A stretch of DNA of 64,000 bases, taken from NCBI GenBank assembly GCA_964016885.1, contig OZ024740.1:114762001-114826000 (forward strand), read 5' to 3'. The position numbers and the translations under genes were made by a program. Below, piece after piece: positions 13,369 to 57,536 of the stretch. This stretch comes from Eledone cirrhosa (Eukaryota). Within the stretch, counting starts at the first letter, position 1; each line of letters opens with the position of its first letter. Below the pieces are notes generated by a model, which was not told the origin of the DNA, made no database searches, and saw only the letters and a list, made by a program, of their open reading frames with translations.

Positions 13369-13466
<98 letters not shown>

Positions 13467-13849
13467 GTATAATAAAATTAATACAAATAACCTTGTTTTT
13501 AACCATCAAAGATGTTATTCTATAATTGTGTTTTTGATAATGAAAACGAAATAATAGTATAAAGAAAAGGTAATTAGGAATACCAATATAGATTTTGTCT
13601 AACAGATAAATATGTATAGTTGAAAGGGGAAAACATACCGAAAGATGATAATTTGGAATAATAAAATCGCAATAACCGCTTCTATGATATTAGTTGATAA
13701 GGATTAAGCTGAAACTGCAGATAGTGGAGACAAAAATGTGAAATTTTTCAAAAAATAATAAAACGGAAATAGTTTTTTTTTAACATATGAGTAAATGAAA
13801 AACAATAAAAAAGAAAATTGGTTGATAAAAGGGCCTAGCCTGTCCCTTT

Positions 13850-14078
13850 AAATTAACGTGAAAAATGCTGTACATTCCAATGAGAGATAAGTCTCAGGGA
13901 GATTCAGCGTAAACGAGTGTGTTTAGCAATGCAGAACTTTTGAATTAGCGGTACCACTCATTTTTCCGTAATGAGTGAACTTGAACAAAATTAGGCAAAG
14001 TGGCTTCTAAACAGGAGTCGAACTTTCTAACTTAACGTAGGGGCCGAACAACCTAACCACTGAACCAGGCACCTTCAC
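13850..14078 (-). mobile_element. Diverged tRNA-derived SINE (second family)
   Basis: Reverse complement begins ggtgcctggttcagtggttagg...agttcgactcc (A/B boxes). Confidence 0.5.
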
Positions 14079-14187
14079 ACAAACACAGGAACACTTGCAC
14101 GCACGCATATTTAGATGTCCAATTTATGTCAGGGTATAACCACATTTAAAAAGGAAGTATATAGGCATCATTATTATGGTGGATTAT

Positions 14188-14438
14188 AATAAAGTACCAG
14201 TGATGCACTGGATTATTGCTGGCCTTGTGTCTAAAATAGAAACAATTATTATGGTGGATTGGCAGTATCGGTAGAGGGTCGGACGCCATACTTTCCAGCA
14301 TAGTTACGTCCCTCTGCGGTCTGAGTTCAAATCCCGCCGAGGTTAACTTTGCCTTTCATCCTTACAGGGTCGTTAAAATAAAGTACCAGTAATGTACTGG
14401 GTGATTGATGGCCTTGTGCCAAAGGTAGAAACAATTAT
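14188..14438 (+). mobile_element. SINE 3' fragment followed by a full-length SINE
   Basis: aataaagtaccag...tagaaacaattattat, then ggtggattggcagtatcggtagagggtcgg...gagttcaaatccc...tagaaacaattatta. Confidence 0.85.
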
Positions 14439-14478
14439 TATATATATACGTTATATACATTATATACATACATATATA

Positions 14479-24137: not shown

Positions 24138-24395
24138 GTAATAATGATTTCTTTATTAACCACAAGGGTTTACATAAAGTAGACATTAAGGACAGTGCAG
24201 GACAATGCAGGACGGTACAAATGGGCATTTCTGCGTGTAAAAAACAAAAACAGAGGATGTAACAAAAAATAACAATGAAAAATTCCCCAATAGGGGGCAG
24301 ACTTCGGAGGGACATTTGTGGAGAAAGCCCAGTAAAAAGCCACAATGACCCTGACCACCAAGGCAAGTGCCCTCTCCCAGTTTCCCACCTTTAAT

Positions 24396-27815: not shown

Positions 27816-27849
27816 GTTTAAATAGAGTGGAAAAGATGGGAAAGACCAC

Positions 27850-29945: not shown

Positions 29946-30198
29946 GTTGTTTTTTGTTTAAAATGAATATTGGGTACAAAACCCCAATAACTGGTTATTT
30001 AACTCCGAAGGGCCAAATAACGGACAGAAAGACCCCTCTCACGAGGAGGAGGGTGTCTTTATCAACAATTTGGTTCAAGTTTTAAACAATTTACAATTGT
30101 TTTAACGGTTAAAAATTACTATACCTTACAGAGCCGAGCCTCCGTCAACCATGGCATTCAATAATAATAATAATAACAATAATAATAATAATAATAAT

Positions 30199-30381
30199 TG
30201 TTTCTACTTTAGGCACAAGGCCAGCAATTACCAGTGCATTACTGGTACTTTATTTTATCGACCCCGTAAGGATGAAAGGCAAAGTCAACCTCGGCGGGAT
30301 TTGAACTCAGATGGTAAAGGGACGTAACTACGCTGGAAAGCATGGCGTCCGACCCTCTACCGATACTGCCAATCCACCGCC
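30199..30381 (-). mobile_element. Young tRNA-derived SINE between Tx1 copies 1 and 2
   Basis: ggcggtggattggcagtatcggtagagggtcgg...gagttcaaatcccgcc...gcctttcatccttacggggtcgataaaataaagtaccag...cctaaagtagaaaca(att)n. Confidence 0.92.
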
Positions 30382-30668
30382 CTTTATAATAATAATAATA
30401 ATAATGATTTCTTTATTAACCACAAGGGTTTACATAAAGTAGACATTAAGGACAGTGCAGGACAATGCAGCACGGTACAAATGGGCATTTCTGCGTGTAA
30501 AAAAACAAAAACAGAGGATGTAACAAAAATAACAATGAAAATAACAATGAAAAATTCCCCAATAGGGGGGGAGACTTCGGAGGGACATTTGTGGAGAAAG
30601 CCCAGTAAAAAGCCACAATGACCCTGACCACCAAGGCAAGTGCCCTCTCCCAGTTTTCCACCTTTAGT

Positions 30669-33600: not shown

Positions 33601-34088
33601 TTGCACCCTCCACCCCTATCCGTTAATCCCACACAGTCCCAGCGTGCATCTAAGATCCCGTTCCAGTCGCCCACTAACACTAAAGAGCGGGACGTTCCAA
33701 GAAAGGTCTCCAGACGCCGGAAGAAATCAGGCCGCCCTGCTCCTGTCGGGGCATAGACGGCCACTAGCCTGAAAGCTTGCCCGTCTCCGCTGGTCACGTC
33801 CAGCACCACCAGCTTACCCTCTGGGTCCAGGAAGATGGCCCGTATGGCGAGATCCAAACCTCTCCGAAAAAGCACAGCAACTCCTCCACCCGATCCAGGA
33901 CGGCTGGGAGATGCGTACACATCGTAGCCGCCGAAGATCGGTGCGAAGGCCCGTGCTTCGGAGATTCTGGTCTCGGTGATGGCCACTACATCTATGTTTA
34001 GTGACCTGAGGTCGTTGAGCAGGTGACCCTGCTTCCATGACGACCCCAAGCCACGCGCATTTATGCTGCCTATTCTGAGTGAGGTCAT
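30669..34088 (-). pseudogene. ORF2 with premature stop (GAG>TAG at 32985-32987)
   Basis: 367 aa and 760 aa ORFs in the same frame; gcgcctacgcc versus gcgcctccgcc in the other copies. Confidence 0.92.
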
Positions 34089-34123
34089 GTTTAAAATAGA
34101 GTGGAAAAGATGGGAAAGACCAC

Positions 34124-36202
34124 TTACCGTACTTTTGGTAGAGGAGGGATGGATTTTACATCCCTTTTCACTTGATCGTCTGGTGAAGGGACCGTTGAAT
34201 CGTCCCTTCGGCTGGTCGTCGGCTCTTCTAAGAGAATGTCTGAGTATACTCTTCGATTGATGGTTCCTCCTAGGTCCCTGAAATCACCAACTGCGTTGGG
34301 GAATTTCGTTTTAATGTTTGTGTATTGTTTCTGTGCTATTTTTAGCAGTCTTATGTTAGTTGGCGTTTTGATTGGTGCTGGTATTATGTAGTCCTGTTGT
34401 GAAATGTCTGTGTGTTCAATTATGTAAGTCATTAGTTTCTTGTTGTGTGTATTTATTGCCGTGCATTTGTTTTTCTGGGGGTGGGGTGTGGTTCTACTAT
34501 TTTCTTGTCGTTGTTGCTGGGTGTGTGTGTTTTGTTGTTGTGTTTGCGATGTTGGTGCTTGTGGTGGTGGTGTTAAAGGTGTTGTTGGCGGTGGTGATGG
34601 TGGTGCTAGTGTGGGTGGTGATGGTGATGGTGTTGTTGCTGCTGTGGGTCTCTTTGCAGTAGACTTTACCCTTTTCTCATTTCTTTCCTCCCTTTTCAAA
34701 GGCGACGATGCGCTGCTTCTGCGTTTGTGCCTTCTTACGACCTTTTGCCATCCCTCTCCCACCTCACACTCCATGTCTGATTCTGTGAGGTCGGGGAGGG
34801 GTACCAGCTCCACTCTTTCACTTGTTGTTGGTGATGTTTGCACTGGAGTCTCTGTTGCAGCTGCATTTGGTATTGCTGTTGTTGTTGTTAATATTTCCAC
34901 TGCTGCTGCTGTTTTTGATTTCCGTGGAGTGGGTATGGGTGCCACGGACCTATCGTTCCTGGTTGCCGCTTGTCCTGTTGCTGGTAGCCGTGGAGCCGGA
35001 TTCGGAAGGAGGGGGGTTTTCTCCTTTCTCAGGGTCTTCTCGTTGCAGAAGGCCCTGAGGTGAGTCTTCGATCCACAGCGAAAGCATTTCGGGCGTTTGC
35101 CCTCAACACTTATGGGCAGTTGAGTGCCGTTATCGAAGTCTATCACATCCGGGATAGCTTCGATGCACTCCTGGTTGGTTTGGATTAGCATCTCAATGGA
35201 GGAGCCGACCCAATCTTCTCTTACTTTTTTCTGTACTTGCAGTACAGTTGTTTTGTCCTCAATTCCGACGAGGACAGACGCGGCCAGCCAAGAAGGGGTC
35301 ATTCCGGGGGGGACGTGGGTTAGTTTGACCCTCACAATTTTTTGCCCACAGTAGGAGGGCACCAACACCATTTCCTCGCTCCTTAGGGTCACTACTGATT
35401 GGGCCTTTGCCTCCTGGGGTGTGGCAAAAAGTACGTCTACGGTGGCATATTTTTTGCCTCGGGTGATGTGCGTTTTCCGCTGCCACACAGACACCAAGGC
35501 TTTTTGTATTTGGGCCTCTGTGGCTCTTTCCACCCTACGGGATTTTGTACTTACTGTACGGTACGTGACCGTACAGTGCTCTTGGGTTTCGAAAAATTTT
35601 TCCGCTGCCTTGCAGATTGCTCGGTGTCCGTTCTTTGTAGCCATCTTCTTCGCTTCCTCTAATTCCTCATTTGTTATGAGGATTGTTTCCAAGTTTTTCG
35701 CAATACCTGCAAATGAGATTGGTTTTTCTCTGCTGTTGTTGTTGTCGTCAGAGCTGCTGGTACTTTTGTTGTTGCTGCAGGTACTACGACTACTGCCTCC
35801 GCCGCTGTTGCTGTGGTTGTTGTTGGTGTTGCTGCTGCTAATGCTGTTGTTGTTTATGCTGCTGGTGATGCTGTTGCGGCTGCTACTGTTGTTTTCATTG
35901 TCACTGTTGCTGTTGTTATTACGGCTGCTACTGCTATTATTCCTGACGTCAGACGAATGAACTGGGTTTTCGTATTTCCTGCACACCTGTTTCGTCGCTG
36001 TCGTCGTCGTCGTGGAGAAACTTTGCACGCTTTGCACGAGACTTTTCTTTTCTTTCGTCACTTGCGAAAGAGAAGGGAGGGAGAGAGACACATTTAAAGA
36101 AGGGAGGGAGAGAGACAATCTTCTCTCTGCTGTAGTGATGATTGAGGAAGAAGAAGACGGAATGAGTGGGAGTGACGTATGAAATTTCTTTTTCGTAGCC
36201 AT
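34124..36202 (-). CDS. ORF1 (692 aa, CCHC knuckle, N/S-rich and P/T/Q-rich low-complexity regions)
   Basis: Open frame with C-x2-C-x4-H-x4-C; short in-frame deletion in the Pro-rich tract. Confidence 0.92.
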   Translation of the reverse strand: MATKKKFHTSLPLIPSSSSSIITTAERRLSLSLPSLNVSLSLPSLSQVTKEKKSLVQSVQSFSTTTTTATKQVCRKYENPVHSSDVRNNSSSSRNNNSNSDNENNSSSRNSITSSINNNSISSSNTNNNHSNSGGGSSRSTCSNNKSTSSSDDNNNSREKPISFAGIAKNLETILITNEELEEAKKMATKNGHRAICKAAEKFFETQEHCTVTYRTVSTKSRRVERATEAQIQKALVSVWQRKTHITRGKKYATVDVLFATPQEAKAQSVVTLRSEEMVLVPSYCGQKIVRVKLTHVPPGMTPSWLAASVLVGIEDKTTVLQVQKKVREDWVGSSIEMLIQTNQECIEAIPDVIDFDNGTQLPISVEGKRPKCFRCGSKTHLRAFCNEKTLRKEKTPLLPNPAPRLPATGQAATRNDRSVAPIPTPRKSKTAAAVEILTTTTAIPNAAATETPVQTSPTTSERVELVPLPDLTESDMECEVGEGWQKVVRRHKRRSSASSPLKREERNEKRVKSTAKRPTAATTPSPSPPTLAPPSPPPTTPLTPPPQAPTSQTQQQNTHTQQQRQENSRTTPHPQKNKCTAINTHNKKLMTYIIEHTDISQQDYIIPAPIKTPTNIRLLKIAQKQYTNIKTKFPNAVGDFRDLGGTINRRVYSDILLEEPTTSRRDDSTVPSPDDQVKRDVKSIPPLPKVR

Positions 36203-36703
36203 GTTGTTTTTTGTTTAAAATGAATATTGGGTACAAAACCCCAATAACTGGTTATTTAGCCCCGAAGGGCCAAATAACGGACAGAAAGACCCCTCTCACG
36301 AGGAGGAGGGTGTCTTTATCAACAATTTGGTTCAAGTTTTAAACAATTTACAATTGTTTTAACGGTTAAAAATTACTATACCTTACAGAGCCGAGCCTCC
36401 GTCAACCATGGCATTCAATAATAATAATAATAACAATAATGATTTCTTTATTAACCACAAGGGTTTACATAAAGTAGACATTAAGGACAGTGCAGGACAA
36501 TGCAGGACGGTACAAATGGGCATTTCTGCGTGTAAAAAAAACAAAAACAGAGGATGTAACAAAAATAACAATGAAAATAACAATGAAAAATTCCCCAATA
36601 GGGGGGAGACTTCGGAGGGACATTTGTGGAGAAAGCCCAGTAAAAAGCCACAATGACCCTGACCACCAAGGCAAGTGCCCTCTCCCAGTTTTCCACCTTT
36701 AGT

Positions 36704-39700
36704 TTACAGATATATACTCAGAGTCGGCCCATTCACTCGGGCCATTCTTGCTTCTCTCACCCATCTTTCAACAAAATGCTGGGAAGAGAGCACTTCCTTC
36801 TCTACTCTGATTTTCCTTTTCAAATGAAATTTGAAAAAGTCAATCAGAGCATCACCGAAGAGGTAAGTGCTCGTCTTCAGCCCTTTCAAACGTGTCCACC
36901 ATACTATCTCTTTCGCCATGGCCACCAGACAGATAAAAACTGCCTGCCCTTCCCGGCTAAAGGAGGAGGGCGGGGCAATCCTCACGATAGACTCAGATGA
37001 TAGCTGGATCCGTCCTAAACGCGACAGCAGGTGTTCGACATAAACCCACAAGTCAGCAATTTTCGGACACTGGACGAGTGCGTGCAGGACGGTTTCGTCG
37101 CCCTGCGCGCATCTCGGACATGCCCGGCTGACGGCACCTCCATGCCTGTAGAGTTTATCCCGAACTGGCAAGGCTCCTCGGTAGCACTGCCAGGCCAGAG
37201 ATTTCTGGAAGTTGTCCATAGGCCCCGGCCCGAAAGTTCTTCCGAAGAGATTGGCTAGTTGATTTTCGTCGACGCCTAGAGTTTCCCCAAGTACGTCGTC
37301 GCTCTTCCCCTCCACTAATCCTCTATAGAACGCCGAGGTGGAGTTTCCACCGATCACATTGCCCGATTGGTCGAGGGCTGTGAGCGCCTGAAGACATTCC
37401 AGTCTCCAGGCGCTCCCTCTCGGTCTTCGCTTGACCCAGGACTGCAGCTCCGTCAAGGAAACGAGTTGGGGAAAAACGCGTCTAGCAAACGGCGACCACA
37501 CCTGATCACCGTCGAGGAAGAGGTGGAGATGTCGTAGCCTGAGCGCGTGCCTGCGCATCATCAGCCACGGCATGCCCAGCCCTCCACGTAGCGGGTGTTG
37601 ACAACAGATGGACCGCCTGACCATCGGAGCACGTCCCTTCCACAAAAAGCGAAAGAGCAAACGCTCCAGCGCAGTCAGGCGAGGCTTAGGACAAGGTACG
37701 ACGGTTAGGCGGTAGCAGATGACAGACGCGATGTACGCGTTAGCCACCTCCGCTCGACCTTTCAGGGATAGCTTCCTCTCCGCCCATTTCTGGGTGAGAG
37801 AAGCCACCCTGCTCGTCACCTCGTCCCAGTTTTTGTCCATCTGGAGGTCCGGACCGAACCAGACCCCTAGCAATTTAACCGGTCCGTCCGTCCAGCGCCC
37901 GACGACGCTGTTGGACGGCATGGACCTGCCTCTCCAGGTGCCGAGCTGCAGGCCCACTGACTTTTCCTGGTTGATCATTGCTCCTGTCACCGCTTCGTAT
38001 TCTCTTAGTGTAGTGCCGATCGCCTCGATGTGTTTGGCGTTCGACACCACTACGGTGACATCGTCCGCATATGCTGACACGGATCTTCCGCAACCTAGTT
38101 CGCGCGGGACTCCCCTCAACGTCTCCAGTTTGTGCAGTAATGGCTCGAGAGTCAATACGTACAAGAGGGACGAGAGGGGACATCCTTGGCGGACCGAGCG
38201 CATGATGTTGAACGGTTCCGACAGGTGACCGTTCACTCTCACCACAGAGCAGATGTCGCTGTGCATGGCAGCGATCCAGCCTCTGAAGACGGGCCCAAAG
38301 CCAGCCGCCCTCAGGACTGCCGCTAGGTAACGATGGTCGACCCTATCGAAAGCTTTCGACTGATCTAAATTGATCAAGGACCCACCCGTGCCAGGTTCCC
38401 TAGCTACCCTCTCTACGATGTATCGCATGAGGTGGAGGTTGTCGTGGATGGATCTGTCGGGAATGGCGCATGTCTGCGCCTCTCCCACCAGACCACCAAC
38501 GACAAGCGCCAACCTCTTTGCTAGCACCTTGGCCAAAATCTTAAACTCTGTGTTTAGCAGAGTTATGGGCCGGAAATTGTCTATGTTATCCCCCTTGTTC
38601 GGATCCTTTCTCAGCAGTGCCACCGCTACTCGGCTCACAGAACTGGGAATTCTCCCGTTCTGTTGCCAGTTGCAGTAGACGTCCGCCAAGAGGCCTCCGA
38701 ACAAGTCTGGCATCTGTACGTAAAGTTCATAGGGCAGACCATCCAAACCAGGCGATTTACCCCTTGTGCAGCCAGTCATTGCCTCCCTTACTTCAGCGGC
38801 TGTTATCGGCTTTTCGCAACACTTCGCCTCAGTGGCCGAGAGCCGCGGCAGTCCGTCGAGGTAGACACTAAAGTCCATCCCTCTACCCGGCCCACCGCTG
38901 CCCCCGAACAGCTGAGCGAAGTGTCGCTGAAAAGCTTCACACATTTGCCCGGGATCGAGTAGCATGCGCCCGTCGTGGTCCACCAAAGACCGGATCGTGG
39001 CTTTGTTGCCACGACGCGCCTCCGCCACTCGGGCCCATTGAACGGCTTTCGTCCCCTCGTGTCTGAGAGCACGCACCCTAGCTCTGACAACGCAGCCTTC
39101 GTGCTTTGCATTGAAGAATTGGTCAAGGGCCAATTTCGCCGCAAGCACGTCGGTCGCAATGCCTTTGCTAAGCGCCTCGTCTAATTTTCTAACTAGTTCT
39201 CCCTCTGCTCTATTTTTCTCTATTGCTAAAGCCTTACTAAACCTAATCGATTCTATTCTAATCGCTCTTTTCAGAGCAAACCACCACTTGTTGTTGACGA
39301 TGGCCCCCGTCAACGCCCGCTTAACTAGTTCGCTAATCCGGTCTCTGTAGGCCTTGCGCGCTGGTAAGGACGCGTTTAGCTTCCAGTAGCCGGGTCCTCG
39401 TCTATGAAGCCTATCTAAGTCAAGCACACAGATCACGAATTTGTGGTCCGTGTAGCTGACTATCTTGAATTGTGGACAGCCTATGCTAGACCTATCTATT
39501 TCCCTACAAAATACTCTATCTAGATATGATCTGGATGACCCTATGCGGTTTTTCCAAGTCCACATTGGCACATTCGGGAAATCCAATCGGTACCTGTCAG
39601 ACAGTTCAAAACGCCTGAGCAGGTTGGTGAGGCTCTTGCACCCTCCACCCCTATCCGCTAATCCCACACAGTCCCAGCGTGCATCTAAGATCCCGTTCCA

Positions 39701-40123
39701 GTCGCCCACTAACACTAAAGAGCGGGACGTTCCAAGAAAGGTCTCCAGACGCCGGAAGAAATCAGGCCGCCCTGCTCCTGTCGGGGCATAGACGGCCACT
39801 AGCCTGAAAGCTTGCCCGTCTCCGCTGGTCACGTCCAGCACCACCAGCTTACCCTCTGGGTCCAGGAAGATGGCCCGTATGGCGAGATCCAAACCTCTCC
39901 GAAAAAGCACAGCAACTCCTCCACCCGATCCAGGACGGCTGGGAGATGCGTACACATCGTAGCCGCCGAAGATCGGTACGAAGGCCCGTGCTTCGGAGAT
40001 TCTGGTCTCGCTGATGGCCACTACATCTATGTTTAGTGACCTGAGGTCGTTGAGCAGGTGACCCTGCTTCCATGACGACCCCAAGCCACGCGCATTTATG
40101 CTGCCTATTCTGAGTGAGGTCAT
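36704..40123 (-). CDS. ORF2: APE, RT and zinc finger (1139 aa)
   Basis: All APE and RT motifs present (GDWN, TDH, QGCPLS, YADD). Confidence 0.97.
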   Translation of the reverse strand: MTSLRIGSINARGLGSSWKQGHLLNDLRSLNIDVVAISETRISEARAFVPIFGGYDVYASPSRPGSGGGVAVLFRRGLDLAIRAIFLDPEGKLVVLDVTSGDGQAFRLVAVYAPTGAGRPDFFRRLETFLGTSRSLVLVGDWNGILDARWDCVGLADRGGGCKSLTNLLRRFELSDRYRLDFPNVPMWTWKNRIGSSRSYLDRVFCREIDRSSIGCPQFKIVSYTDHKFVICVLDLDRLHRRGPGYWKLNASLPARKAYRDRISELVKRALTGAIVNNKWWFALKRAIRIESIRFSKALAIEKNRAEGELVRKLDEALSKGIATDVLAAKLALDQFFNAKHEGCVVRARVRALRHEGTKAVQWARVAEARRGNKATIRSLVDHDGRMLLDPGQMCEAFQRHFAQLFGGSGGPGRGMDFSVYLDGLPRLSATEAKCCEKPITAAEVREAMTGCTRGKSPGLDGLPYELYVQMPDLFGGLLADVYCNWQQNGRIPSSVSRVAVALLRKDPNKGDNIDNFRPITLLNTEFKILAKVLAKRLALVVGGLVGEAQTCAIPDRSIHDNLHLMRYIVERVAREPGTGGSLINLDQSKAFDRVDHRYLAAVLRAAGFGPVFRGWIAAMHSDICSVVRVNGHLSEPFNIMRSVRQGCPLSSLLYVLTLEPLLHKLETLRGVPRELGCGRSVSAYADDVTVVVSNAKHIEAIGTTLREYEAVTGAMINQEKSVGLQLGTWRGRSMPSNSVVGRWTDGPVKLLGVWFGPDLQMDKNWDEVTSRVASLTQKWAERKLSLKGRAEVANAYIASVICYRLTVVPCPKPRLTALERLLFRFLWKGRAPMVRRSICCQHPLRGGLGMPWLMMRRHALRLRHLHLFLDGDQVWSPFARRVFPQLVSLTELQSWVKRRPRGSAWRLECLQALTALDQSGNVIGGNSTSAFYRGLVEGKSDDVLGETLGVDENQLANLFGRTFGPGPMDNFQKSLAWQCYRGALPVRDKLYRHGGAVSRACPRCAQGDETVLHALVQCPKIADLWVYVEHLLSRLGRIQLSSESIVRIAPPSSFSREGQAVFICLVAMAKEIVWWTRLKGLKTSTYLFGDALIDFFKFHLKRKIRVEKEVLSSQHFVERWVREARMARVNGPTLSIYL

Positions 40124-40158
40124 GTTTAAAATAGAGTGGAAAAGATGGGAAAGACCAC

Positions 40159-42252
40159 TTACCGTACTTTTGGTAGAGGAGGGATGGTTTTTACATCCCT
40201 TTTCACTTGATCGTCTGGTGAAGGGACCGTTGAATCGTCCCTTCGGCTGGTCGTCGGCTCTTCTAAGAGAATGTCTGAGTATACTCTTCGATTGATGGTT
40301 CCTCCTAGGTCCCTGAAATCACCAACTGCGTTGGGGAATTTCGTTTTAATGTTTGTGTATTGTTTCTGTGCTATTTTTAGCAGTCTTATGTTAGTTGGCG
40401 TTTTGATTGGTGCTGGTATTATGTAGTCCTGTTGTGAAATGTCTGTGTGTTCAATTATGTAAGTCATTAGTTTCTTGTTGTGTGTATTTATTGCCGTGCA
40501 TTTGTTTTTCTGGGGGTGGGGTGTGGTTCTGCTATTTTCTTGTCGTTGTTGCTGGGTGTGTGTGTTTTGTTGTTGTGTTTGCGATGTTGGTGCTTGTGGT
40601 GGTGGAGTTGAAGGTGTTGTTGGCGGTGGGGTTGTCGCCGGTGGTGATGGTGGTGCTAGTGTGGGTGGTGATGGTGATGGTGTTGTTGCTGCTGTGGGTC
40701 TCTTTGCAGTAGACTTTACCCTTTTCTCATTTCTTTCCTCCCTTTTCAAAGGCGACGATGCGCTGCTTCTGCGTTTGTGCCTTCTTACGACCTTTTGCCA
40801 TCCCTCTCCCACCCCACACTCCATGTCTGATTCTGTGAGGTCGGGGAGGGGTACCAGCTCCACTCTTTCACTTGTTGTTGGTGATGTTTGCACTGGAGTC
40901 TCTGTTGCAGCTGCATTTGGTATTGCTGTTGTTGTTGTTAATATTTCCACTGCTGCTGCTGTTTTTGATTTCCGTGGAGTGGGTATGGGTGCCACGGACC
41001 TATCGTTCCTGGTTGCCGCTTGTCCTGTTGCTGGTAGCCGTGGAGCCGGATTCGGAAGGAGGGGGGTTTTCTCCTTTCTCAGGGTCTTCTCGTTGCAGAA
41101 GGCCCTGAGGTGAGTCTTCGATCCACAGCGAAAGCATTTCGGGCGTTTGCCCTCAACACTTATGGGCAGTTGAGTGCCGTTATCGAAGTCTATCACATCC
41201 GGGATAGCTTCGATGCACTCCTGGTTGGTTTGGATTAGCATCTCAATGGAGGAGCCGACCCAATCTTCTCTTACTTTTTTCTGTACTTGCAGTACAGTTG
41301 TTTTGTCCTCAATTCCGACGAGGACAGACGCGGCCAGCCAAGAAGGGGTCATTCCGGGGGGGACGTGGGTTAGTTTGACCCTCACAATTTTTTGCCCACA
41401 GTAGGAGGGCACCAACACCATTTCCTCGCTCCTTAGGGTCACTACTGATTGGGCCTTTGCCTCCTGGGGTGTGGCAAAAAGTACGTCTACGGTGGCATAT
41501 TTTTTGCCTCGGGTGATGTGCGTTTTCCGCTGCCACACAGACACCAAGGCTTTTTGTATTTGGGCCTCTGTGGCTCTTTCCACCCTACGGGATTTTGTAC
41601 TTACTGTACGGTACGTGACCGTACAGTGCTCTTGGGTTTCGAAAAATTTTTCCGCTGCCTTGCAGATTGCTCGGTGTCCGTTCTTTGTAGCCATCTTCTT
41701 CGCTTCCTCTAATTCCTCATTTGTTATGAGGATTGTTTCCAAGTTTTTCGCAATACCTGCAAATGAGATTGGTTTTTCTCTGCTGTTGTTGTTGTCGTCA
41801 GAGCTGCTGGTACTTTTGTTGTTGCTGCAGGTACTACGACTACTGCCTCCGCCGCTGTTGCTGTGGTTGTTGTTGGTGTTGCTGCTGCTAATGCTGTTGT
41901 TGTTTATGCTGCTGGTGATGCTGTTGCGGCTGCTACTGTTGTTTTCATTGTCACTGTTGCTGTTGTTATTACGGCTGCTACTGCTATTATTCCTGACGTC
42001 AGACGAATGAACTGGGTTTTCGTATTTCCTGCACACCTGTTTCGTCGCTGTCGTCGTCGTCGTGGAGAAACTTTGCACGCTTTGCACGAGACTTTTCTTT
42101 TCTTTCGTCACTTGCGAAAGAGAAGGGAGGGAGAGAGACACATTTAAAGAAGGGAGGGAGAGAGACAATCTTCTCTCTGCTGTAGTGATGATTGAGGAAG
42201 AAGAAGACGGAATGAGTGGGAGTGACGTATGAAATTTCTTTTTCGTAGCCAT
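40159..42252 (-). CDS. ORF1 (697 aa, CCHC knuckle)
   Basis: Open frame; 35-nt spacer to the ORF2 ATG. Confidence 0.93.
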   Translation of the reverse strand: MATKKKFHTSLPLIPSSSSSIITTAERRLSLSLPSLNVSLSLPSLSQVTKEKKSLVQSVQSFSTTTTTATKQVCRKYENPVHSSDVRNNSSSSRNNNSNSDNENNSSSRNSITSSINNNSISSSNTNNNHSNSGGGSSRSTCSNNKSTSSSDDNNNSREKPISFAGIAKNLETILITNEELEEAKKMATKNGHRAICKAAEKFFETQEHCTVTYRTVSTKSRRVERATEAQIQKALVSVWQRKTHITRGKKYATVDVLFATPQEAKAQSVVTLRSEEMVLVPSYCGQKIVRVKLTHVPPGMTPSWLAASVLVGIEDKTTVLQVQKKVREDWVGSSIEMLIQTNQECIEAIPDVIDFDNGTQLPISVEGKRPKCFRCGSKTHLRAFCNEKTLRKEKTPLLPNPAPRLPATGQAATRNDRSVAPIPTPRKSKTAAAVEILTTTTAIPNAAATETPVQTSPTTSERVELVPLPDLTESDMECGVGEGWQKVVRRHKRRSSASSPLKREERNEKRVKSTAKRPTAATTPSPSPPTLAPPSPPATTPPPTTPSTPPPQAPTSQTQQQNTHTQQQRQENSRTTPHPQKNKCTAINTHNKKLMTYIIEHTDISQQDYIIPAPIKTPTNIRLLKIAQKQYTNIKTKFPNAVGDFRDLGGTINRRVYSDILLEEPTTSRRDDSTVPSPDDQVKRDVKTIPPLPKVR

Positions 42253-42767
42253 GTTGTTTTTTGTTTAAAATGAATATTGGGTACAAAACCCCAATAACTG
42301 GTTATTTAGCCCCGAAGGGCCAAATAACGGACAGAAAGACCCCTCTCACGAGGAGGAGGGTGTCTTTATCAACAATTTGGTTCAAGTTTTAAACAATTTA
42401 CAATTGTTTTAACGGTTAAAAATTACTATACCTTACAGAGCCGAGCCTCCGTCAACCATGGCATTCAATAATAATAATAATAACAATAATAATAATAATA
42501 ATAATGATTTCTTTATTAACCACAAGGGTTTACATAAAGTAGACATTAAGGACAGTGCAGGACAATGCAGGACGGTACAAATGGGCATTTCTGCGTGTAA
42601 AAAAACAAAAACAGAGGATGTAACAAAAATAACAATGAAAATAACAATGAAAAATTCCCCAATAGGGGGGAGACTTCGGAGGGACATTTGTGGAGAAAGC
42701 CCAGTAAAAAGCCACAATGACCCTGACCACCAAGGCAAGTGCCCTCTCCCAGTTTTCCACCTTTAGT

Positions 42768-45700
42768 TTACAGATATATACTCAGAGTCGGCCCATTCAC
42801 TCGGGCCATTCTTGCTTCTCTCACCCATCTTTCAACAAAATGCTGGGAAGAGAGCACTTCCTTCTCTACTCTGATTTTCCTTTTCAAATGAAATTTGAAA
42901 AAGTCAATCAGAGCATCACCGAAGAGGTAAGTGCTCGTCTTCAGCCCTTTCAAACGTGTCCACCATACTATCTCTTTCGCCATGGCCACCAGACAGATAA
43001 AAACTGCCTGCCCTTCTCGGCTAAAGGAGGAGGGCGGGGCAATCCTCACGATGGACTCAGATGATAGCTGGATCCGTCCTAAACGCGACAGCAGGTGTTC
43101 GACATAAACCCACAAGTCAGCAATTTTCGGACACTGGACGAGTGCGTGCAGGACGGTTTCGTCGCCCTGCGCGCATCTCGGACATGCCCGGCTGACGGAA
43201 CCTCCATGCCTGTAGAGTTTATCCCGAACTGGCAAGGCTCCTCGGTAGCACTGCCAGGCCAGAGATTTCTGGAAGTTGTCCATAGGCCCTGGCCCGAAAG
43301 TTCTTCCGAAGAGATTGGCTAGTTGATTTTCGTCGACGCCTAGAGTTTCCCCAAGTACGTCGTCGCTCTTCCCCTCCACTAATCCTCTATAGAACGCCGA
43401 GGTGGAGTTTCCACCGATCACATTGCTCGATTGGTCAAGGGCTGTGAGCGCCTGAAGACATTCCAGTCTCCAGGCGCTCCCTCTCGGTCTTCGCTTGACC
43501 CAGGACTGCAGCTCCGTCAAGGAAACGAGCTGGGGAAAAACGCGTCTAGCAAACGGCGACCACACCTGATCACCGTCGAGGAAGAGGTGGAGATGTCGTA
43601 GCCTGAGCGCGTGCCTGCGCATCATCAGCCACGGCATGCCCAGCCCTCCACGTAGCGGGTGTTGACAACAGATGGACCGCCTGACCATCGGAGCACGTCC
43701 CTTCCACAAAAAGCGAAAGAGCAAACGCTCCAGCGCAGTCAGGCGAGGCTTAGGACAAGGTACGACGGTTAGGCGGTAGCAGATGACAGACGCGATGTAC
43801 GCGTTAGCCACCTCCGCTCGACCTTTCAGGGATAGCTTCCTCTCCGCCCATTTCTGGGTGAGAGAAGCCACCCTGCTCGTCACCTCGTCCCAGTTTTTGT
43901 CCGTCTGGAGGTCCGGACCGAACCAGACCCCTAGCAATTTAACCGGTCCGTCCGTCCAGCGCCCGACGACGCTGTTGGACGGCATGGACCTGCCTCTCCA
44001 GGTGCCGAGCTGCAGGCCCACTGACTTTTCCTGGTTGATCATTGCTCCTGTCACCGCTTCGTATTCTCTTAGTGTAGTGCCGATCGCCTCGATGTGTTTG
44101 GCGTTCGACACCACTACGGTGACATCGTCCGCATATGCTGACACGGATCTTCCGCATCCTAGTTCGCGCGGGACTCCCCTCAACGTCTCCAGTTTGTGCA
44201 GTAATGGCTCGAGAGTCAATACGTACAAGAGGGACGAGAGGGGACATCCTTGGCGGACCGAGCGCATGATGTTGAACGGTTCCGACAGGTGACCGTTCAG
44301 TCTCACCACAGAGCAGATGTCGCTGTGCATGGCAGCGATCCAGCCTCTGAAGACGGTCCCAAAGCCAGCCGCCCTCAGGACTGCCGCTAGGTAACGATGG
44401 TCGACCCTATCGAAAGCTTTCGACTGATCTAAATTGATCAAGGACCCACCCGTGCCAGGTTCCCTAGCTACCCTCTCTACGATGTATCGCATGAGGTGGA
44501 GGTTGTCGTGGATGGATCTGTCGGGAATGGCGCATGTCTGCGCCTCTCCCACCAGACCACCAACGACAAGCGCCAACCTCTTTGCTAGCACCTTGGCCAA
44601 AATCTTAAACTCTGTGTTTAGCAGAGTTATGGGCCGGAAATTGTCTATGTTATCCCCCTTGTTCGGATCCTTTCTCAGCAGTGCCACCGCTCCTCAGCTC
44701 ACAGAACTGGGAATTCTCCCGTTCTGTTGCCAGTTGCAGTAGACGTCCGCCAAGAGGCCTCCGAACAAGTCTGGCATCTGTACGTAAAGTTCACAGGGCA
44801 GACCATCCAAACCAGGCGATTTACCCCTTGTGCAGCCAGTCATTGCCTCCCGTACTTCAGCGGCTGTTATCGGCTTTTCGCAACACCTCGCCTCAGTGGC
44901 CGAGAGCCGCGGCAGTCCGTCGAGGTAGACACTAAAGTCCATCCCTCTACCCGGCCCCCCGCTGCCCCCGAACAGCTGAGCGAAGTGTCGCTGAAAAGCT
45001 TCACACATTTGCCCGGGATCGAGTAGCATGCGCCCGTCGTGGTCCACCAAAGACCGGATCGTGGCTTTGTTGCCACGACGCGCCTCCGCCACTCGGGCCC
45101 ATTGAACGGCTTTCGTCCCCTCGTGTCTGAGAGCACGCACCCTAGCTCTGACAACGCAGCCTTCGTGCTTTGCATTGAAGAATTGGTCAAGGGCCAATTT
45201 CGCCGCAAGCACGTCGGTCGCAATGCCTTTGCTAAGCGCCTCGTCTAATTTTCTAACTAGTTCTCCCTCTGCTCTATTTTTCTCTATTGCTAAAGCCTTA
45301 CTAAACCTAATCGATTCTATTCTAATCGCTCTTTTCAGAGCAAACCACCACTTGTTGTTGACGATGGCCCCCGTCAACGCCCGCTTAACTAGTTCGCTAA
45401 TCCGGTCTCTGTAGGCCTTGCGCGCTGGTAAGGACGCGTTTAGCTTCCAGTAGCCGGGTCCTCGTCTATGAAGCCTATCTAAGTCAAGCACACAGGTCAC
45501 GAATTTGTGGTCCGTGTAGCTGACTATCTTGAATTGTGGACAGCCTATGCTAGACCTATCTATTTCCCTACAAAATACTCTATCTAGATATGATCTGGAT
45601 GACCCTATACGGTTTGTCCAAGTCCACATTGGCACATTCGGGAAATCCAATCGGTACCTGTCAGACAGTTCAAAACGCCTGAGCAGGTTGGTGAGGCTCT

Positions 45701-46187
45701 TGCACCCTCCACCCCTATCCGCTAATCCCACACAGTCCCAGCGTGCATCTAAGATCCCGTTCCAGTCGCCCACTAACACTAAAGAGCGGGACGTTCCAAG
45801 AAAGGTCTCCAGACGCCGGAAGAAATCAGGCCGCCCTGCTCCTGTCGGGGCATAGACGGCCACTAGCCTGAAAGCTTGCCCGTCTCCGCTGGTCACGTCC
45901 AGCACCACCAGCTTACCCTCTGGGTCCAGGAAGATGGCCCGTATGGCGAGATCCAAACCTCTCCTAAAAAGCACAGCAACTCCTCCACCGGATCCAGGAC
46001 GGCTGGGAGATGCGTACACATCGTAGCCGCCGAAGATCGGTGCGAAGGCCCGTGCTTCGGAGATTCTGGTCTCGCTGATGGCCACTACATCTATGTTTAG
46101 TGACCTGAGGTCGTTGAGCAGGTGACCCTGCTTCCATGACGACCCCAAGCCACGCGCATTTATGCTGCCTATTCTGAGTGAGGTCAT
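42768..46187 (-). pseudogene. ORF2 with premature stop (CGA>TGA at 44694-44696)
   Basis: 497 aa and 639 aa ORFs in frame; tcctcagctc versus tcctcggctc (CpG transition). Confidence 0.92.
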
Positions 46188-46222
46188 GTTTAAAATAGAG
46201 TGGAAAAGATGGGAAAGACCAC

Positions 46223-48319
46223 TTACCGTACTTTTGGTAGAGGAGGGATGGTTTTTACATCCCTTTTCACTTGATCGTCTGGTGAAGGGACCGTTGAATC
46301 GTCCCTTCGGCTGGTCGTCGGCTCTTCTAAGAGAATGTCTGAATATACTCTTCGATTGATGGTTCCTCCTAGGTCCCTGAAATCACCAACTGCGTTGGGG
46401 AATTTCGTTTTAATATTTGTGTATTGTTTCTGTGCTATTTTTAGCAGTCTTATGTTAGTTGGCGTTTTGATTGGTGCTGGTATTATGTAGTCCTGTTGTG
46501 AAATGTCTGTGTGTTCAATTATGTAAGTCATTAGTTTCTTGTTGTGTGTATTTATTGCCGTGCATTTGTTTTTCTGGGGGTGGGGTGTGGTTCTGCTATT
46601 TTCTTGTCGTTGTTGCTGGGTGTGTGTGTTTTGTTGTTGTGTTTGCGATGTTGGTGCTTGTGGTGGTGGTGTTGAAGGTGTTGTTGGCGGTGGGGTTGTC
46701 GCCGGTGGTGATGGTGGCGCTAGTGTGGGTGGTGATGGTGTTGGTGTTGTTGCTGCTGTGGGTCTCTTTGCAGTAGACTTTACCCTTTTCTCATTTCTTT
46801 CCTCCCTTTTCAAAGGCGACGATGCGCTGTTTCTGCGTTTGTGCCTTCTTACGACCTGTTGCCATCTCTCTCCCACCTCACACTCCATGTCTGATTCTGT
46901 GAGGTCGGGGAGGGGTACCAGCTCCACTCTTTCACTTGTTGTTGTTGGTGATGTTTGCACTGGAGTCTCTGTTGCAGCTGCATTTGGTATTGCTGTTGTT
47001 GTTGTTAATATTTCCACTGCTGCTGCTGTTTTTGATTTCCGTGGAGTGGGTATGGGTGCCACGGACCTATCGTTCCTGGTTGCCGCTTGTCCTGTTGCTG
47101 GTAGCCGTGGAGCCGGATTCGGAAGGAGGGGGGTTTTCTCCTTTCTCAGGGTCTTCTCGTTGCAGAAGGCCCTGAGGTGAGTCTTCGATCCACAGCGAAA
47201 GCATTTCGGGCGTTTGCCCTCAACACTTATGGGCAGTTGAGTGCCGTTATCGAAGTCTATCACATCCGGGATAGCTTCAATGCACTCCTGGTTGGTTTGG
47301 ATTAGCATTTCAATGGAGGAGCCGACCCAATCTTCTCTTACTTTTTTCTGTACTTGCAGTACAGTTGTTTTGTCCTCAATTCCGACGAGGACAGACGCGG
47401 CCAGCCAAGAAGGGGTCATTCCGGGGGGGACGTGGGTTAGTTTGACCCTCACAATTTTTTGCCCACAGTAGGAGGGCACCAACACCATTTCCTCGCTCCT
47501 TAGGGTCACTACTGATTGGGCCTTTGCCTCCTGGGGTGTGGCAAAAAGTACGTCTACGGTGGCATATTTTTTGCCTCGGGTGATGTGCGTTTTCCGCTGC
47601 CACACAGACACCAAGGCTTTTTGTATTTGGGCCTCTGTGGCTCTTTCCACCCTACGGGATTTTGTACTTACTGTACGGTACGTGACCGTACAGTGCTCTT
47701 GGGTTTCGAAAAATTTTTCCGCTGCCTTGCAGATTGCTCGGTGTCCGTTCTTTGTAGCCATCTTCTTCGCTTCCTCTAATTCCTCATTTGTTATGAGGAT
47801 TGTTTCCAAGTTTTTCGCAATACCTGCAAATGAGATTGGTTTTTCTCTGCTGTTGTTGTTGTCGTCAGAGCTGCTGGTACTTTTGTTGTTGCTGCAGGTA
47901 CTACGACTACTGCCTCCGCCGCTGTTGCTGTGGTTGTTGTTGGTGTTGCTGCTGCTAATGCTGTTGTTGTTTATGCTGCTGGTGATGCTGTTGCGGCTGC
48001 TACTGTTGTTTTCATTGTCACTGTTGCTGTTGTTATTACGGCTGCTACTGCTATTATTCCTGACGTCAGACGAATGAACTGGGTTTTCGTATTTCCTGCA
48101 CACCTGTTTCGTCGCTGTCGTCGTCGTCGTGGAGAAACTTTGCACGCTTTGCACGAGACTTTTCTTTTCTTTCGTCACTTGCGAAAGAGAAGGGAGGGAG
48201 AGAGACACATTTAAAGAAGGGAGGGAGAGAGACAATCTTCTCTCTGCTGTAGTGATGATTGAGGAAGAAGAAGACGGAATGAGTGGGAGTGACGTATGAA
48301 ATTTCTTTTTCGTAGCCAT
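46223..48319 (-). CDS. ORF1 (698 aa, CCHC knuckle)
   Basis: Open frame homologous to the other copies. Confidence 0.93.
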   Translation of the reverse strand: MATKKKFHTSLPLIPSSSSSIITTAERRLSLSLPSLNVSLSLPSLSQVTKEKKSLVQSVQSFSTTTTTATKQVCRKYENPVHSSDVRNNSSSSRNNNSNSDNENNSSSRNSITSSINNNSISSSNTNNNHSNSGGGSSRSTCSNNKSTSSSDDNNNSREKPISFAGIAKNLETILITNEELEEAKKMATKNGHRAICKAAEKFFETQEHCTVTYRTVSTKSRRVERATEAQIQKALVSVWQRKTHITRGKKYATVDVLFATPQEAKAQSVVTLRSEEMVLVPSYCGQKIVRVKLTHVPPGMTPSWLAASVLVGIEDKTTVLQVQKKVREDWVGSSIEMLIQTNQECIEAIPDVIDFDNGTQLPISVEGKRPKCFRCGSKTHLRAFCNEKTLRKEKTPLLPNPAPRLPATGQAATRNDRSVAPIPTPRKSKTAAAVEILTTTTAIPNAAATETPVQTSPTTTSERVELVPLPDLTESDMECEVGERWQQVVRRHKRRNSASSPLKREERNEKRVKSTAKRPTAATTPTPSPPTLAPPSPPATTPPPTTPSTPPPQAPTSQTQQQNTHTQQQRQENSRTTPHPQKNKCTAINTHNKKLMTYIIEHTDISQQDYIIPAPIKTPTNIRLLKIAQKQYTNIKTKFPNAVGDFRDLGGTINRRVYSDILLEEPTTSRRDDSTVPSPDDQVKRDVKTIPPLPKVR

Positions 48320-48580
48320 GTTGTTTTTTGTTTAAAATGAATATTGGGTACAAAACCCCAATAACTGGTTATTTAGCCCCGAAGGGCCAAATAACGGACA
48401 GAAAGACCCCTCTCACGAGGAGGAGGGTGTCTTTATCAACAATTTGGTTCAAGTTTTAAACAATTTACAATTGTTTTAACGGTTAAAAATTACTATACCT
48501 TACAGAGCCGAGCCTCCGTCAACCATGGCATTCAATAATAATAATAATAACAATAATAATAATAATAATAATAATAATAA

Positions 48581-49163
48581 GCATTTTGACCTGCCCCATC
48601 AAAAGAATTGGTGGGAGCATCAACCACCTCCCATACTTGAAAAAGATCACATCTCAATCTTGTGGAACTTTAGCATCCAAACAGACCGAAAAATAGATGC
48701 AAACAGACCTGATATAATATTGAAAGACTTTAAAAATAGGGTATGCCTGCTAATTGATATGTCTGTTCCAATAGACAAGAATGTATCTATAAAAACATTT
48801 GAAAAATTGAGCAAGTATAAGGACCTGGAGATAGAAATTGGAAAAATGTGGAAATTGAGAACTAAAACAATACCAGTGGTTGTAGGCGCTCTAGGAATGA
48901 TACCTAAGGGGGCTAATGATTACTTATCGCAAATCCCAGGAAACCCGCGTATAGGAGAAATACAAAAGATAGTACTAATGGGAACTGCCCATATACTAAG
49001 GAAGATTCTGTCAATATAAGTACATCACAAGTCTAAACACTAAGGATGCATGTGTGAATATGTATGTTCTTTCTTGAACATGGCGGACCTTGTTGTCTCT
49101 TGAGGTCACTGGTTGTGACTTGGTGATAACTCGTATGAACATAAAGCAAGATAAACGCAACTG
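48581..49163 (+). mobile_element. 5'-truncated Dong/R4-clade element (RLE domain, 3'UTR, (TAA)n tail)
   Basis: WWEHQP...ILWNFSIQTDRKIDANRPDII...LIDMSVP...EKLSKYKDL...PVVVGALG...GTAHILRKIL*; (AAT)n on both sides; Dong elements are known to target TAA repeats. Confidence 0.85.
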
Positions 49164-49207
<44 letters not shown>

Positions 49208-49212: not shown

Positions 49213-50270
49213 ACTGATTTCTTTATTAGCCACACAGGGCTCACATTAAGGAAACATTAAAGACTGCACAGCATGGTACAGGATGACACAGTACGTTACA
49301 GTGTTGATTTTTCTTTGTGTAAAATAAAATTTATAAAATATACTACGAAAATAAACATTTAAAACAAACAACAAATTCCCCGAAGGTGAGGAGACTTCAA
49401 GGGTCATTTGTGGAAAAATCCCACACAAGCCAGGGTCACCCTGTCCACTAGGGCAAAGTGTCTCTCCCAGTTATTCTCCTCCAATCTACAGACGCATGTT
49501 CAAGGCAGGCCCATTCATACGGACCATGCTCTCACCTACCTTTCAACAAACTCGTTGGAAGGCAGCCCTTTCCTCACAGCCCTGATTTTCCTCTTCAAGT
49601 GAAACACGAAAGAGTTAATCAGGGCTTCGCCGAATAGGAAGATGACTGTCCTTAATCCTTTCAAACGCATCCACCACATAATCTCTTTCGCAATTGCCAC
49701 TAGGTAGATAAGAATTGCCTGTACTTCAGGCAGGGCAATCTTCACAATGGACTCAGTTGATAGTCGAATCCGTCCTACATGCGATAGCAGGTGCTCGACA
49801 TAAACCCATAGATCAGCAATACTAGGACACTCGACGAGTGCGTGCACGACGGTTTGGTCGCCCTGCATGCACCTCGGACAGGCCCGACTGACGGCACATC
49901 CATGCCTGTAGAGTTTATCTTGAACTGGCAAAGCTCCTCGGTAGTACTGTCAGACCAGGGATTTCTGGAAGTTATCCATGGACCTGGACCGGAATTCCAC
50001 TAGAAAAAGTGGCTAGTTGATTTTCGCCAACACCTAGAGTCTCCCCAAGGACATCATTACGCTTACCCTCCGCCAACCCTTTATAGAACGCTAAGGTGGA
50101 GTTTCCACTGCCCGATTGACTGAGGGCTGTGAGTGCTTGAAAATATTCCAGTCTCCTAATGCTCCCTCTCGGTCTTTGATTGACCCAAGATTGCCGCCCC
50201 GTTAAGGAGATGAGCTGGGGCAAAACGTGTCTAGCGAACGGGGACCACACCTGTTCGCCATTGAATAAAG
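49213..50270 (-). mobile_element. Older diverged Tx1-like 3' fragment
   Basis: WSPFARHVLPQL...LYRHGCAVSRACPRC...FHLKRKIR homologous to the ORF2 C-terminus, with stops and frameshifts; ends gctaataaagaaatcagt(att)n. Confidence 0.9.
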
Positions 50271-50275: not shown

Positions 50276-50400
50276 AATAATGACGATTTCTTTTTTTAGG
50301 ACTGCACTGCATGGCACAGGATGTCACAGGACGGTACAGTGTTGGTTAACAAAAACAGGCGAAAACCTGTAAAACTTCTAACAAAATAAATTCCTCAGTA
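50276..50400 (-). mobile_element. Further decayed Tx1-like 3'UTR remnant
   Basis: aataatgacgatttctt...ggactgcactgcatggcacaggatgtcacaggacggtacagtgttg resembles the 3'UTR at 49260-49305 and 24189-24220. Confidence 0.55.
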
Positions 50401-53362: not shown

Positions 53363-54001
53363 TGGTTTATATAGAAGACCCAAGACATCTACCAAGCCAC
53401 ATTATCTTGAAATAAACAGAAAAGAACGAACTATGGTTTATATAGAAGACCCACGACATCTACCAAGCCACATTATCTTGAAATAAACAGAAAAGAGCGA
53501 ACTATGGTTTATATAGATGACCCACGACATCTACCAAGCCACATTATCTTGAAATAAACAGAAAAGAACGAACTATGGTTTATATAGATGACCCACGGCA
53601 TCTACCAAGCCACATTATCTTGAAATAAACAGAAAAGAACGAACTATGGTTTATATAGAAGACCCACGGCATCTACCAAGCCACATTATCTTGAAATAAA
53701 CAGAAAAGAACGAACTATGGTTTATATAGAAGACCCACGGCATCTACCAAGCCACATTATCTTGAAATAAACAGAAAAGAACGAACTATGGTTTATATAG
53801 AAGACCCACGACATCTACCAAGCCACATTATCTTGAAATAAACAGAAAAGAGCGAAGTATGGTTTATATACAAGACCCACGACATCTACCAAGCCACATT
53901 ATCTTGAAATAAACAGAAAAGAGCGAACTATGGTTTATATAGAAGACCCACGGCATCTACCAAGCCACATTATCTTGAAATAAACAGAAAAGAGCGAACT
54001 A
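53363..54001. repeat. 71-bp minisatellite, 9 copies
   Basis: Unit tggtttatatagaagacccacgacatctaccaagccacattatcttgaaataaacagaaaagaacgaacta at 53363, 53434, ...; few substitutions. Confidence 0.97.
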
Positions 54002-54730: not shown

Positions 54731-55029
54731 TTACAGTATCTGTTACTAGGTGGCAGAAATAACTGCTGAAATTAAGCATTGTGCTTGAATTATGGAAAGG
54801 TGGTGTTGAATTGGTTAAACATGTCGATGTGAGTATTTCATAGTTTAGTTTTAACTTTTACTATCGCTTTACTGTCGGTTTATTCCAACTAACTGTAATT
54901 TAAACGTGGGATTTCACATAGATAGCTATTTTCACTTGGAACATTATATATTAGTCGATCAGTTTATAGCTTCGCAATGCCATTAACACGCCAACAGTAA
55001 ACATTCGATATAATGCAACTATCACTTCA

Positions 55030-55072
<43 letters not shown>

Positions 55073-55928
55073 AAGCCCTAGGCATGGAGAAGACGAACTG
55101 GCCAACCTGTTCGGTAGGACATTCAGCCCGGGACCCATGGATAACTTCCAGAGGTCCCTGGCCTGGCAATGCTACAGAAGGGCTCTGCCCGTTCGAGAAA
55201 GGCTCTACAGACACGGGCGCCCGGGTAGGGACCCATCGAAAAAGGTCTGTCCCAGATGCGTGTGCGACGAGGAAACCGTTGCACACGCATTGGTACACTG
55301 CTCGGGCATTGCCGATCTGTGGGGCTATGTCGAACAACTGCTGTCAAGGGTGGGACCGATCCGGTTGACCACCGAGTCTATTGTAACGATCAAGCCGCCT
55401 CCCCTCTTCAAAAACGAAGGAGAGGCGGTGTTTCTGTGCGTAATAGCCATGGCGAAAGAGGTTGTATGGTGGACGCGTCTGAAAGGACTGAGGTCAGACA
55501 CCTTTCTCTCTGGCCAACAACTGGTCCGTTTCTTCCGATATCATTTCGGAAGAAGGATCAGGATGGAGAGAGAGGTGCTGCACCCCAGCCGTTTCTATGA
55601 AAGATGGGTGAAAGTGGCGAGAATGGCCCGTGTGAATGGGCCTTCACTCTACATCAGACTATAGGTGAGGAAGATGAAAGACCAAGGGAGCACCCCTTCT
55701 CTGTGCTCCTGAGGAGAAGGGTTGCACACTTTTTTCGGGGGTGTGTGCGACCCCCCAAGGCGCCTCCTCTCTATTGAGGACTTTGTTATAAATTTTATTT
55801 TTTGTTATATTTTATTTTATTTTTATATATTGTTATTGCCTCCTCCTTATTGAGGATGCCTTGTTTTGTAAACTCCCCCCATTGTACTTGTCCCACTTTT
55901 GATGCCCTGGTGGCAAATAAAAGAAACA
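55073..55928 (+). mobile_element. 5'-truncated Tx1-like element of a related family inserted in (ATCT)n
   Basis: MDNFQRSLAWQCYR...CPRC...ETVAHALVHC...ARMARVNGPSLYIRL* homologous to the array ORF2 C-terminus; ends aataaaagaaacat(atct)n; (ATCT)n also at the 5' junction. Confidence 0.92.
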
Positions 55929-56021
<93 letters not shown>

Positions 56022-57304: not shown

Positions 57305-57353
57305 ATAATACAGGGAAAAAACCACCAGTGTATGGAATCTATAACTATATAAC

Positions 57354-57536
57354 TGTTTCTACTTTAGGCACAAGGCCAGCAATTCCCAGTACCTTACTGT
57401 TACTTTATTTTATCGACCCCGTAAGGATGAAAGGCAAAGTCAACCTCGGCGGGATTTGAACTCAGATCGTAAAGGGACGTAACTATGCTGGAAAGCATGG
57501 CGTCCGACCCTCTACCGATACTGCCAATCCACCGCC
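57354..57536 (-). mobile_element. tRNA-derived SINE (same family as 30199-30381)
   Basis: Near-identical head, central domain and tail. Confidence 0.9.

Follow-up and report, generated by a model that had tools for sequence, protein, structure and literature searches.

Among Tx1-clade LINEs of vertebrates, the teleost elements Kibi and Koshi are described from (TC)n and (TTC)n, respectively, and the crocodilian Tx1 group 2 from (TTCC)n or (TTTC)n (PMC4494074). That account already establishes that related Tx1 families can change their repeat unit; it attributes target choice mainly to the endonuclease and applies, as its criterion for microsatellite targeting, the same repeat flanking more than 20% of copies. 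The endonuclease of Xenopus Tx1L (Tx1L-EN) nicks almost only its own site, a Tx1L loop grafted into L1 did not transfer target specificity, and integration of the chimeric element LTx was unlike its own nicking profile, with RNA–target pairing raised by the authors (PMC1950540). The outcome of the graft makes loop swaps a weak test compared with swaps of whole domains or tails. In the I and L2 clades, elements with repeat tails but no site specificity have been described (PMC3747384), and for RTE elements a link between the 3′ microsatellite and the target site has been proposed (PMC6007223). In the available text of three octopus accounts, LINEs are counted or described without Tx1 targets (PMC13282606, PMC8967140, PMC9115989); one of them lists, for Octopus vulgaris, 13 L1-Tx1 families of recent activity, together accounting for 421 insertions (PMC13282606).

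A LINE 3′ end between two ATCT tracts

The window, the whole 64-kb stretch of DNA that was analyzed, contains at 55073–55929 (+) an 857-bp 3′ end of an L1/Tx1-type LINE, which we named family F. This copy is 5′-truncated, starting inside ORF2, and carries the ORF2 C-terminus of 192 aa plus the stop codon (55086–55664, +; stop at 55662–55664), as indicated by BLASTN/TBLASTN, alignment and Pfam. A CCHC zinc-binding zf-RVT domain lies at approximately 55155–55322 (+; Pfam, E = 2.9e-6), and the 3′ UTR (55665–55929, +; sequence and alignment) ends in AATAAAAGAAACAT (55916–55929), with AATAAA at 55916–55921. Since zf-RVT is the only part of the L1-group layout present in the F copy, its assignment comes via its 64% identity to the full-length family A described below. 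A four-residue insertion at 55207–55240, just N-terminal to the zinc-domain CxxC, is absent from eight of eight aligned relatives and, judging from this alignment, is a handy diagnostic of family F.

The copy is preceded by CA(TATC)10TAT (55028–55072, +) and followed by about 23 ATCT units, (TATC)23 (55929/55930–56020, +), bearing out the initial annotation, which had placed the fragment in (ATCT)n on both sides. Upstream of the left tract the DNA is unique and non-element, with only two bases of element-like sequence, while the right tract continues into TGTCTGTT, a TC-rich stretch and (TG)n up to 56167, together forming a compound microsatellite. The F truncation point abuts the left repeat, as the nucleotide alignment between F and A extends to the tract edge. 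We rejected an assembly artefact on the grounds that homology reaches this edge and that other sequencing runs contain family F. Simple repeats are dense in the window (211 TRF rows), and other tracts comprise 52 AT, 24 AC/GT and 11 AAT/ATT; TATC/GATA runs of at least two units occur only twice in the whole 64 kb, both times flanking the F copy. Elsewhere in the window, at 53363–54001, nine copies of a 71-bp tandem repeat match at 97%.

Because F is 5′-truncated, the left tract cannot derive from the 5′ end of the RNA. It may be the left half of the target microsatellite or a 45-bp target-site duplication, and the longest left-flank suffix recurring at the F 3′ end is indeed 45 nt, CA(TATC)10TAT. 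We rejected the duplication as an established fact: it is allowed but inseparable from a split microsatellite, with CAT being a family end. The initial annotation had also pointed to a shared 'cat-atct' start of the two tracts, which is present on both sides but amounts to a two-base match beyond the repeat (P about 0.07 under local base composition) and was therefore rejected as a recognition motif. CAT also terminates family A (AATAAAGAAATCAT-TATT), so the right-hand CAT is probably element sequence.

The ATT-associated array and the kinship of the two families

Family A comprises four full-length copies in a head-to-tail array (24146–48533, −). From A4 (42506–48533, −), which has a stop within ORF2 and an ATT tract at its 5′ flank, the array runs through A3 (36441–42466, −), with both ORF1 (697 aa, one CCHC knuckle) and ORF2 (1139 aa, APE–RT–zf) open, and A2 (30406–36416, −), with a stop within ORF2, to A1 (24146–30159, −), with ORF1 split, ORF2 open and ATT tracts on either side. 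Pfam assigned Exo_endo_phos (22–210), RVT_1 (511–754) and zf-RVT (974–1026) to A3 ORF2, giving A3 the L1-group layout of an ORF1 followed by an ORF2 with N-terminal APE, RT and C-terminal CCHC; the APE loop region reads MWTWKNRIGSSRSYLDR. No Pfam family matched A ORF1, which carries the CCHC zinc knuckle CFRCGSKTHLRAFC. An ORF1 with such a knuckle is a feature of the Tx1 clade. A decayed, 5′-truncated relative, B (49216–50262, −; 75% nt identity to A), ends in AATAAAGAAATC plus an ATT tract.

All five 3′ ends of these families in the window (the four A copies and B) show AATAAAGAAATC followed by an ATT tract; a sixth match of this pattern, at 5696, is not an element copy. ATT likewise precedes all four full-length A 5′ ends, where the same interrupted tract, GTT(ATT)5, recurs (30160–30198, 36417–36446, 42467–42505 and 48534–48578). 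Given this shared tract and the low divergence among copies (26–76 differences per about 6000 sites), the A copies are not proven to be four independent targeting events; the common GTT(ATT)5 suggests either that the RNA carries the 5′ repeat along or that duplication enlarged the array. The 5′ tract of A1 adjoins a SINE-like repeat and that of A4 an unrelated element fragment, neither being another Tx1 end.

Several neighboring elements share these tracts. The SINE-like repeat between A2 and A1 (30194–30381, 188 bp) has ATT tracts on either side and is 96% identical to 57349–57536, with more copies at 11559–14459. Between A4 and B, a fragment at 48581–49164 (+) encodes a PD..D/ExK-like C-terminal domain and lies between two TAA/AAT tracts that are common to the A4 5′ end and the B 3′ end. 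The domain resembles the restriction-like endonuclease end of Dong/R4-type LINEs; searches of 48582–49016 against Pfam, PDB and Atlas returned no name. One ATT site may be collecting two unrelated element types, inserted on opposite strands. Directly upstream of B, a degenerate Tx1-like 3′ end (50287–50347, −; 42/48 nt to the B 3′ UTR) is followed by a short GTCATTATT and then by B, constituting another head-to-tail junction.

F matched each of the four A copies at 122/191 aa (64%) and at 68–69% nt over 567–575 nt (BLASTN/TBLASTN), in agreement with the 'roughly 60%' ORF2 identity to the array family estimated initially, and matched B at 50% aa. Over the C-terminal domain, A and F are 65% identical, compared with 77–79% between A and database proteins P0001–P0004. 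A C-terminal-domain tree of F, B and 44 of 127 proteins (those aligned over at least 150 residues) contained a cephalopod-like clade of ten rows (99/98), in which an Argonauta protein branches first and F next (98/82 for F plus the rest), while A and B with three other pairs form a group without F at weak support (83/62). With A closer to other proteins and F outside the A group, the two families appear to be cousins within an octopod radiation and are not proven sisters; of the original description as a closely related sister family, the homology stands and the sisterhood is overstated.

The Argonauta hians protein is the only named close animal relative (69% to A ORF2) and points to an octopod as the likely host; one other close match is filed under a Herbaspirillum MAG, presumably through host contamination. 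The best functionally named relative of A ORF2 is Xenopus Tx1L ORF2 (P0096; 29% over 83%, E = 5e-92, 327 bits), and human L1 ORF2 scored 181 bits in a separate phmmer search. In a quick RT tree of A and 36 proteins chosen from the 127, the cephalopod RTs and their marine-metagenome relatives formed a branch of their own (SH-aLRT 100), apart from the fish and Xenopus branch; the cephalopod and Tx1L branches join at an open fork (SH-aLRT 82) in a tree lacking a verified L1 outgroup. Assignment of the A/F lineage to the Tx1 clade is probable from these comparisons.

Other copies and distant relatives

Of 16 public runs listed, 12 contain the stretch or part of it, five of them with half the words or more. 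We used four runs on 55057–55945, namely X7 and X14 (which carry one species label), X10 and X11, and left out X2–X6 (word share under 0.2). Family F is multi-copy, and its copies diverge to varying degrees: X7 yielded 5520 contig pieces, 1284 at ≥99% and 976 at <90% identity, counts that include sister families in conserved segments. Raw-read depth in X14 reached 1885 at 55928 and averaged 1415 over 55927–55945, with depth across the first 16 nt of the 3′ ATCT averaging about 70% of that at the element end. At least about 39% of the X14 reads at the element end passed right through these 16 nt, assuming that approximately 41 of the 780 reads overrunning an end of the stretch do so at the left. 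An equally long ATCT piece in the left-end bin had a depth of 41, so stray microsatellite reads are not an evident cause of the 3′ depth, and 100 start places at 55857 indicate that the 3′ reads come from many molecules.

Across reads and contigs, 5′ truncation varied and the 3′ end stayed fixed: seven start points other than that of the solo copy share one 3′ end. Among the 12 joints listed (of 16), nine connect an ATCT tract to the element at these seven distinct points: 55219 (55 reads), 55273 (31 reads), 55449, 55482, 55548, 55563 (two rows) and 55605; the remaining three consist of one skip and one go-back pair, both internal, and one variant inside the tract. Of the seven points, four are in F-typical sequence: 55219 coincides with the 12-nt insertion peculiar to F, and 55273, 55548 and 55563 lie outside sister-family pile-ups. 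The other three (55449, 55482 and 55605) fall in segments also covered by sister-family reads, and two of these joints include 13–18 nt of sequence outside the repeat; the copies concerned may therefore not belong to F. Because repeat letters overflow between the two sides of the joints, the ATCT joints are probably head-to-tail, with a previous copy end, ATCT and then a truncated copy. Such joints are also expected from template jumping or from targeting of the element's own end, which makes them compatible with microsatellite targeting and not decisive.

Of the 24 loose ends listed (with 483 further ones), 14 are on the 5′ side, and most of these read as upstream or sister-family element sequence; those at 55088–55089 continue into upstream element sequence, showing that longer copies of family F exist. 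At 55596, four X7 contigs show an A-type 3′ end fused straight to a truncated copy, the repeat being absent from the junction, and at 55092 two X10 contigs (agreement 0.67) have sequence that is not ATCT.

Set against the 20% criterion, the 3′ side shows the same repeat at a higher share (at least about 39%, mean about 70%, X14). On the 5′ side, the rows listed offer one solo locus and seven joints, which are counts of ATCT junctions and not a share of copies; the 55073–55929 copy is the only solo insertion seen with both flanks. The initial annotation had held that heterogeneous flanks at other copies would speak against a family-specific target. Here, the 3′ depth and the seven ATCT start points, four of them F-typical, favor homogeneity, and the repeat-free junction at 55596 does not. 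Similarly, its proposal that the families occupy separate microsatellites, ATT and ATCT, gains from the ATCT at the 3′ ends and joints of other F copies and from the five-of-five ATT ends of A and B, but is tempered by that same junction and by 5′ evidence consisting of counts and not of shares. On balance, the assignment of family-specific repeats to F and A is probably right.

The F endonuclease (APE) was not recovered, and three protein searches, one of which used A and not F as the query, yielded no F-family protein (best relative, 68%). The C-terminal alignment found no related locus in metagenome, genome or viral contigs, and the F 3′-end pattern had zero matches in viral contigs. Scanning with the ORF2 alignment revealed no related locus in metagenome and viral contigs and only relatives of 41–52% identity in genome contigs. 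Those at approximately 41% comprise 38 loci in one marine MAG and a single locus in a second, mostly in tandem head-to-tail, and none of the 34 scorable 3′ ends in these 39 loci has a 2–5-bp repeat within 15 nt of AATAAA. Arrays therefore occur without microsatellites in relatives, and tandem joints alone are no proof of targeting. No RNA gene was found at the Rfam gathering threshold in the nine of 39 outgroup loci examined, so the arrays in those nine are not in tRNA or snRNA clusters.

The main source of these loci, a MAG labeled 'uncultured Arenicella' (L001–L038; CAXXMW01 contigs 2–18), has many contigs that are long head-to-tail arrays of eukaryotic Tx1-like LINEs. Several subfamilies are represented, and in each of them AATAAA is followed by a short sequence particular to that subfamily, with no microsatellite. 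These arrays, which show a self-arraying habit, are a probable case of host contamination in a genome collection.

Possible routes to an ATCT target and comparison with described elements

We think it likely, with some reserve, that F is a multi-copy LINE family preferring (ATCT)n, that target-primed reverse transcription placed this copy in an ATCT tract that was already there, and that A prefers (ATT)n. The targeting case rests on one clear solo insertion, the tail data and compatible joints. In the best reading, which we also hold as reasonably probable, the endonuclease leads the targeting, and pairing of the repeat-bearing RNA end assists it. By analogy with Tx1L, the putative F APE endonuclease would nick the AGAT strand of the tract and act as the main determinant. 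The RNA end, ...AAACAU(AUCU)n, probably produced by read-through into the donor repeat, would pair with the freed strand and fix the register. Reverse transcription would stop after about 860 nt, and the 5′ end would be joined inside that tract, so that repeat flanks the copy on either side and conceals any duplication. Every copy's tail would then offer a new target, giving rise to head-to-tail arrays.

Pairing might instead make the choice. If the A and F endonucleases were alike and loose, the RNA 3′ repeat (AUU versus AUCU, one added C per unit) would select the primed nicks, and the apparent target switch proposed by the initial annotation would be a change of tail, self-perpetuating as transcripts read through into the same repeat. 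The A and F ends agree through CAT and diverge solely in the repeat that follows, the RNA end and the left flank correspond across CA and the repeat, and both the LTx mismatch between integration and nicking (PMC1950540) and the link proposed for RTE (PMC6007223) agree with such a role. We nevertheless regard it as unlikely: the Tx1L endonuclease is sequence-specific by itself (PMC1950540), 64% identity leaves the A and F enzymes ample room for divergence, and the CA match, with the chance probability given above, is to a predicted RNA. A bolder version is more doubtful still, namely that the target is written in the RNA, with the read-through tail as a guide and one added C (ATT to ATCT) having moved the family to new sites while the endonuclease changed little, from an ancestor building microsatellite-free arrays.

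Two further explanations dispense with targeting. ATCT could be a 3′ tail only, with no genomic microsatellite preference. Tandem joints would then arise when the template jumps or when copies insert at element ends, and the left tract would be a short jump product or a duplication. This would accommodate the outgroup arrays (0/34), the A-type end joined directly to a truncated copy (X7, 55596), the position of B behind another degenerate 3′ end and the repeat tails of I and L2 elements (PMC3747384); it fits poorly with a left tract that has unique DNA upstream and only two element-like bases, with a right tract that grades into a typical compound microsatellite, and with 5′ tracts of A1 and A4 that adjoin no Tx1 end, and we judge it improbable. 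Chance, meaning the accidental arrival of a tailed LINE in an ATCT tract of a genome rich in microsatellites, draws on the density of simple repeats in the window and on the single solo locus, but it is very improbable given that the 64 kb hold no further TATC tract and that seven more ATCT-to-element joints were found.

If the two families do target these repeats, microsatellite targeting by Tx1-type LINEs would extend beyond vertebrates into cephalopods, and both targets appear to be unreported. Families A and F would form a natural pair in one genome, A3 having both reading frames open, for asking whether targets are set by the endonuclease or by the RNA tail. The answer is relevant to site-directed retrotransposon tools and to why octopus microsatellites gather mobile elements; were the RNA-tail reading true, an APE-type retrotransposon could be retargeted by its tail. 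The general phenomenon is known, and the gain would be a test system, not a new principle.

We found no ATT- or ATCT-targeting cephalopod Tx1 element in a literature largely outside subscription journals, Repbase and Dfam, and the target lists in Figure 3 and the supplements of PMC4494074 may name ATT or ATCT. The 13 L1-Tx1 families of O. vulgaris could include A and F; the available text of that account has no mention of 'target site', and its sole 'microsatellite' passage is a figure legend (PMC13282606). Like F and A, the repeat-tailed LINEs of other clades (I with TAA, UnaL2 with TGTAA, and RTE) have a family-specific microsatellite after the 3′ end, but there the repeat is described as a tail, with no matching 5′ flank in the descriptions available (PMC3747384, PMC6007223). 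Xenopus Tx1L shares the APE–RT–CCHC layout with A but targets the DNA transposon Tx1D and not a microsatellite (PMC4494074). Kibi, Koshi and the crocodilian Tx1 elements (PMC4494074) are compared here by description. These are APE-type Tx1-clade LINEs in microsatellites, as A and F probably are, with related families on different units; A and F differ from them in their apparent targets, (ATT)n and (ATCT)n, in their mollusc host and, for the RT of A and its cephalopod relatives, in an RT branch of their own.
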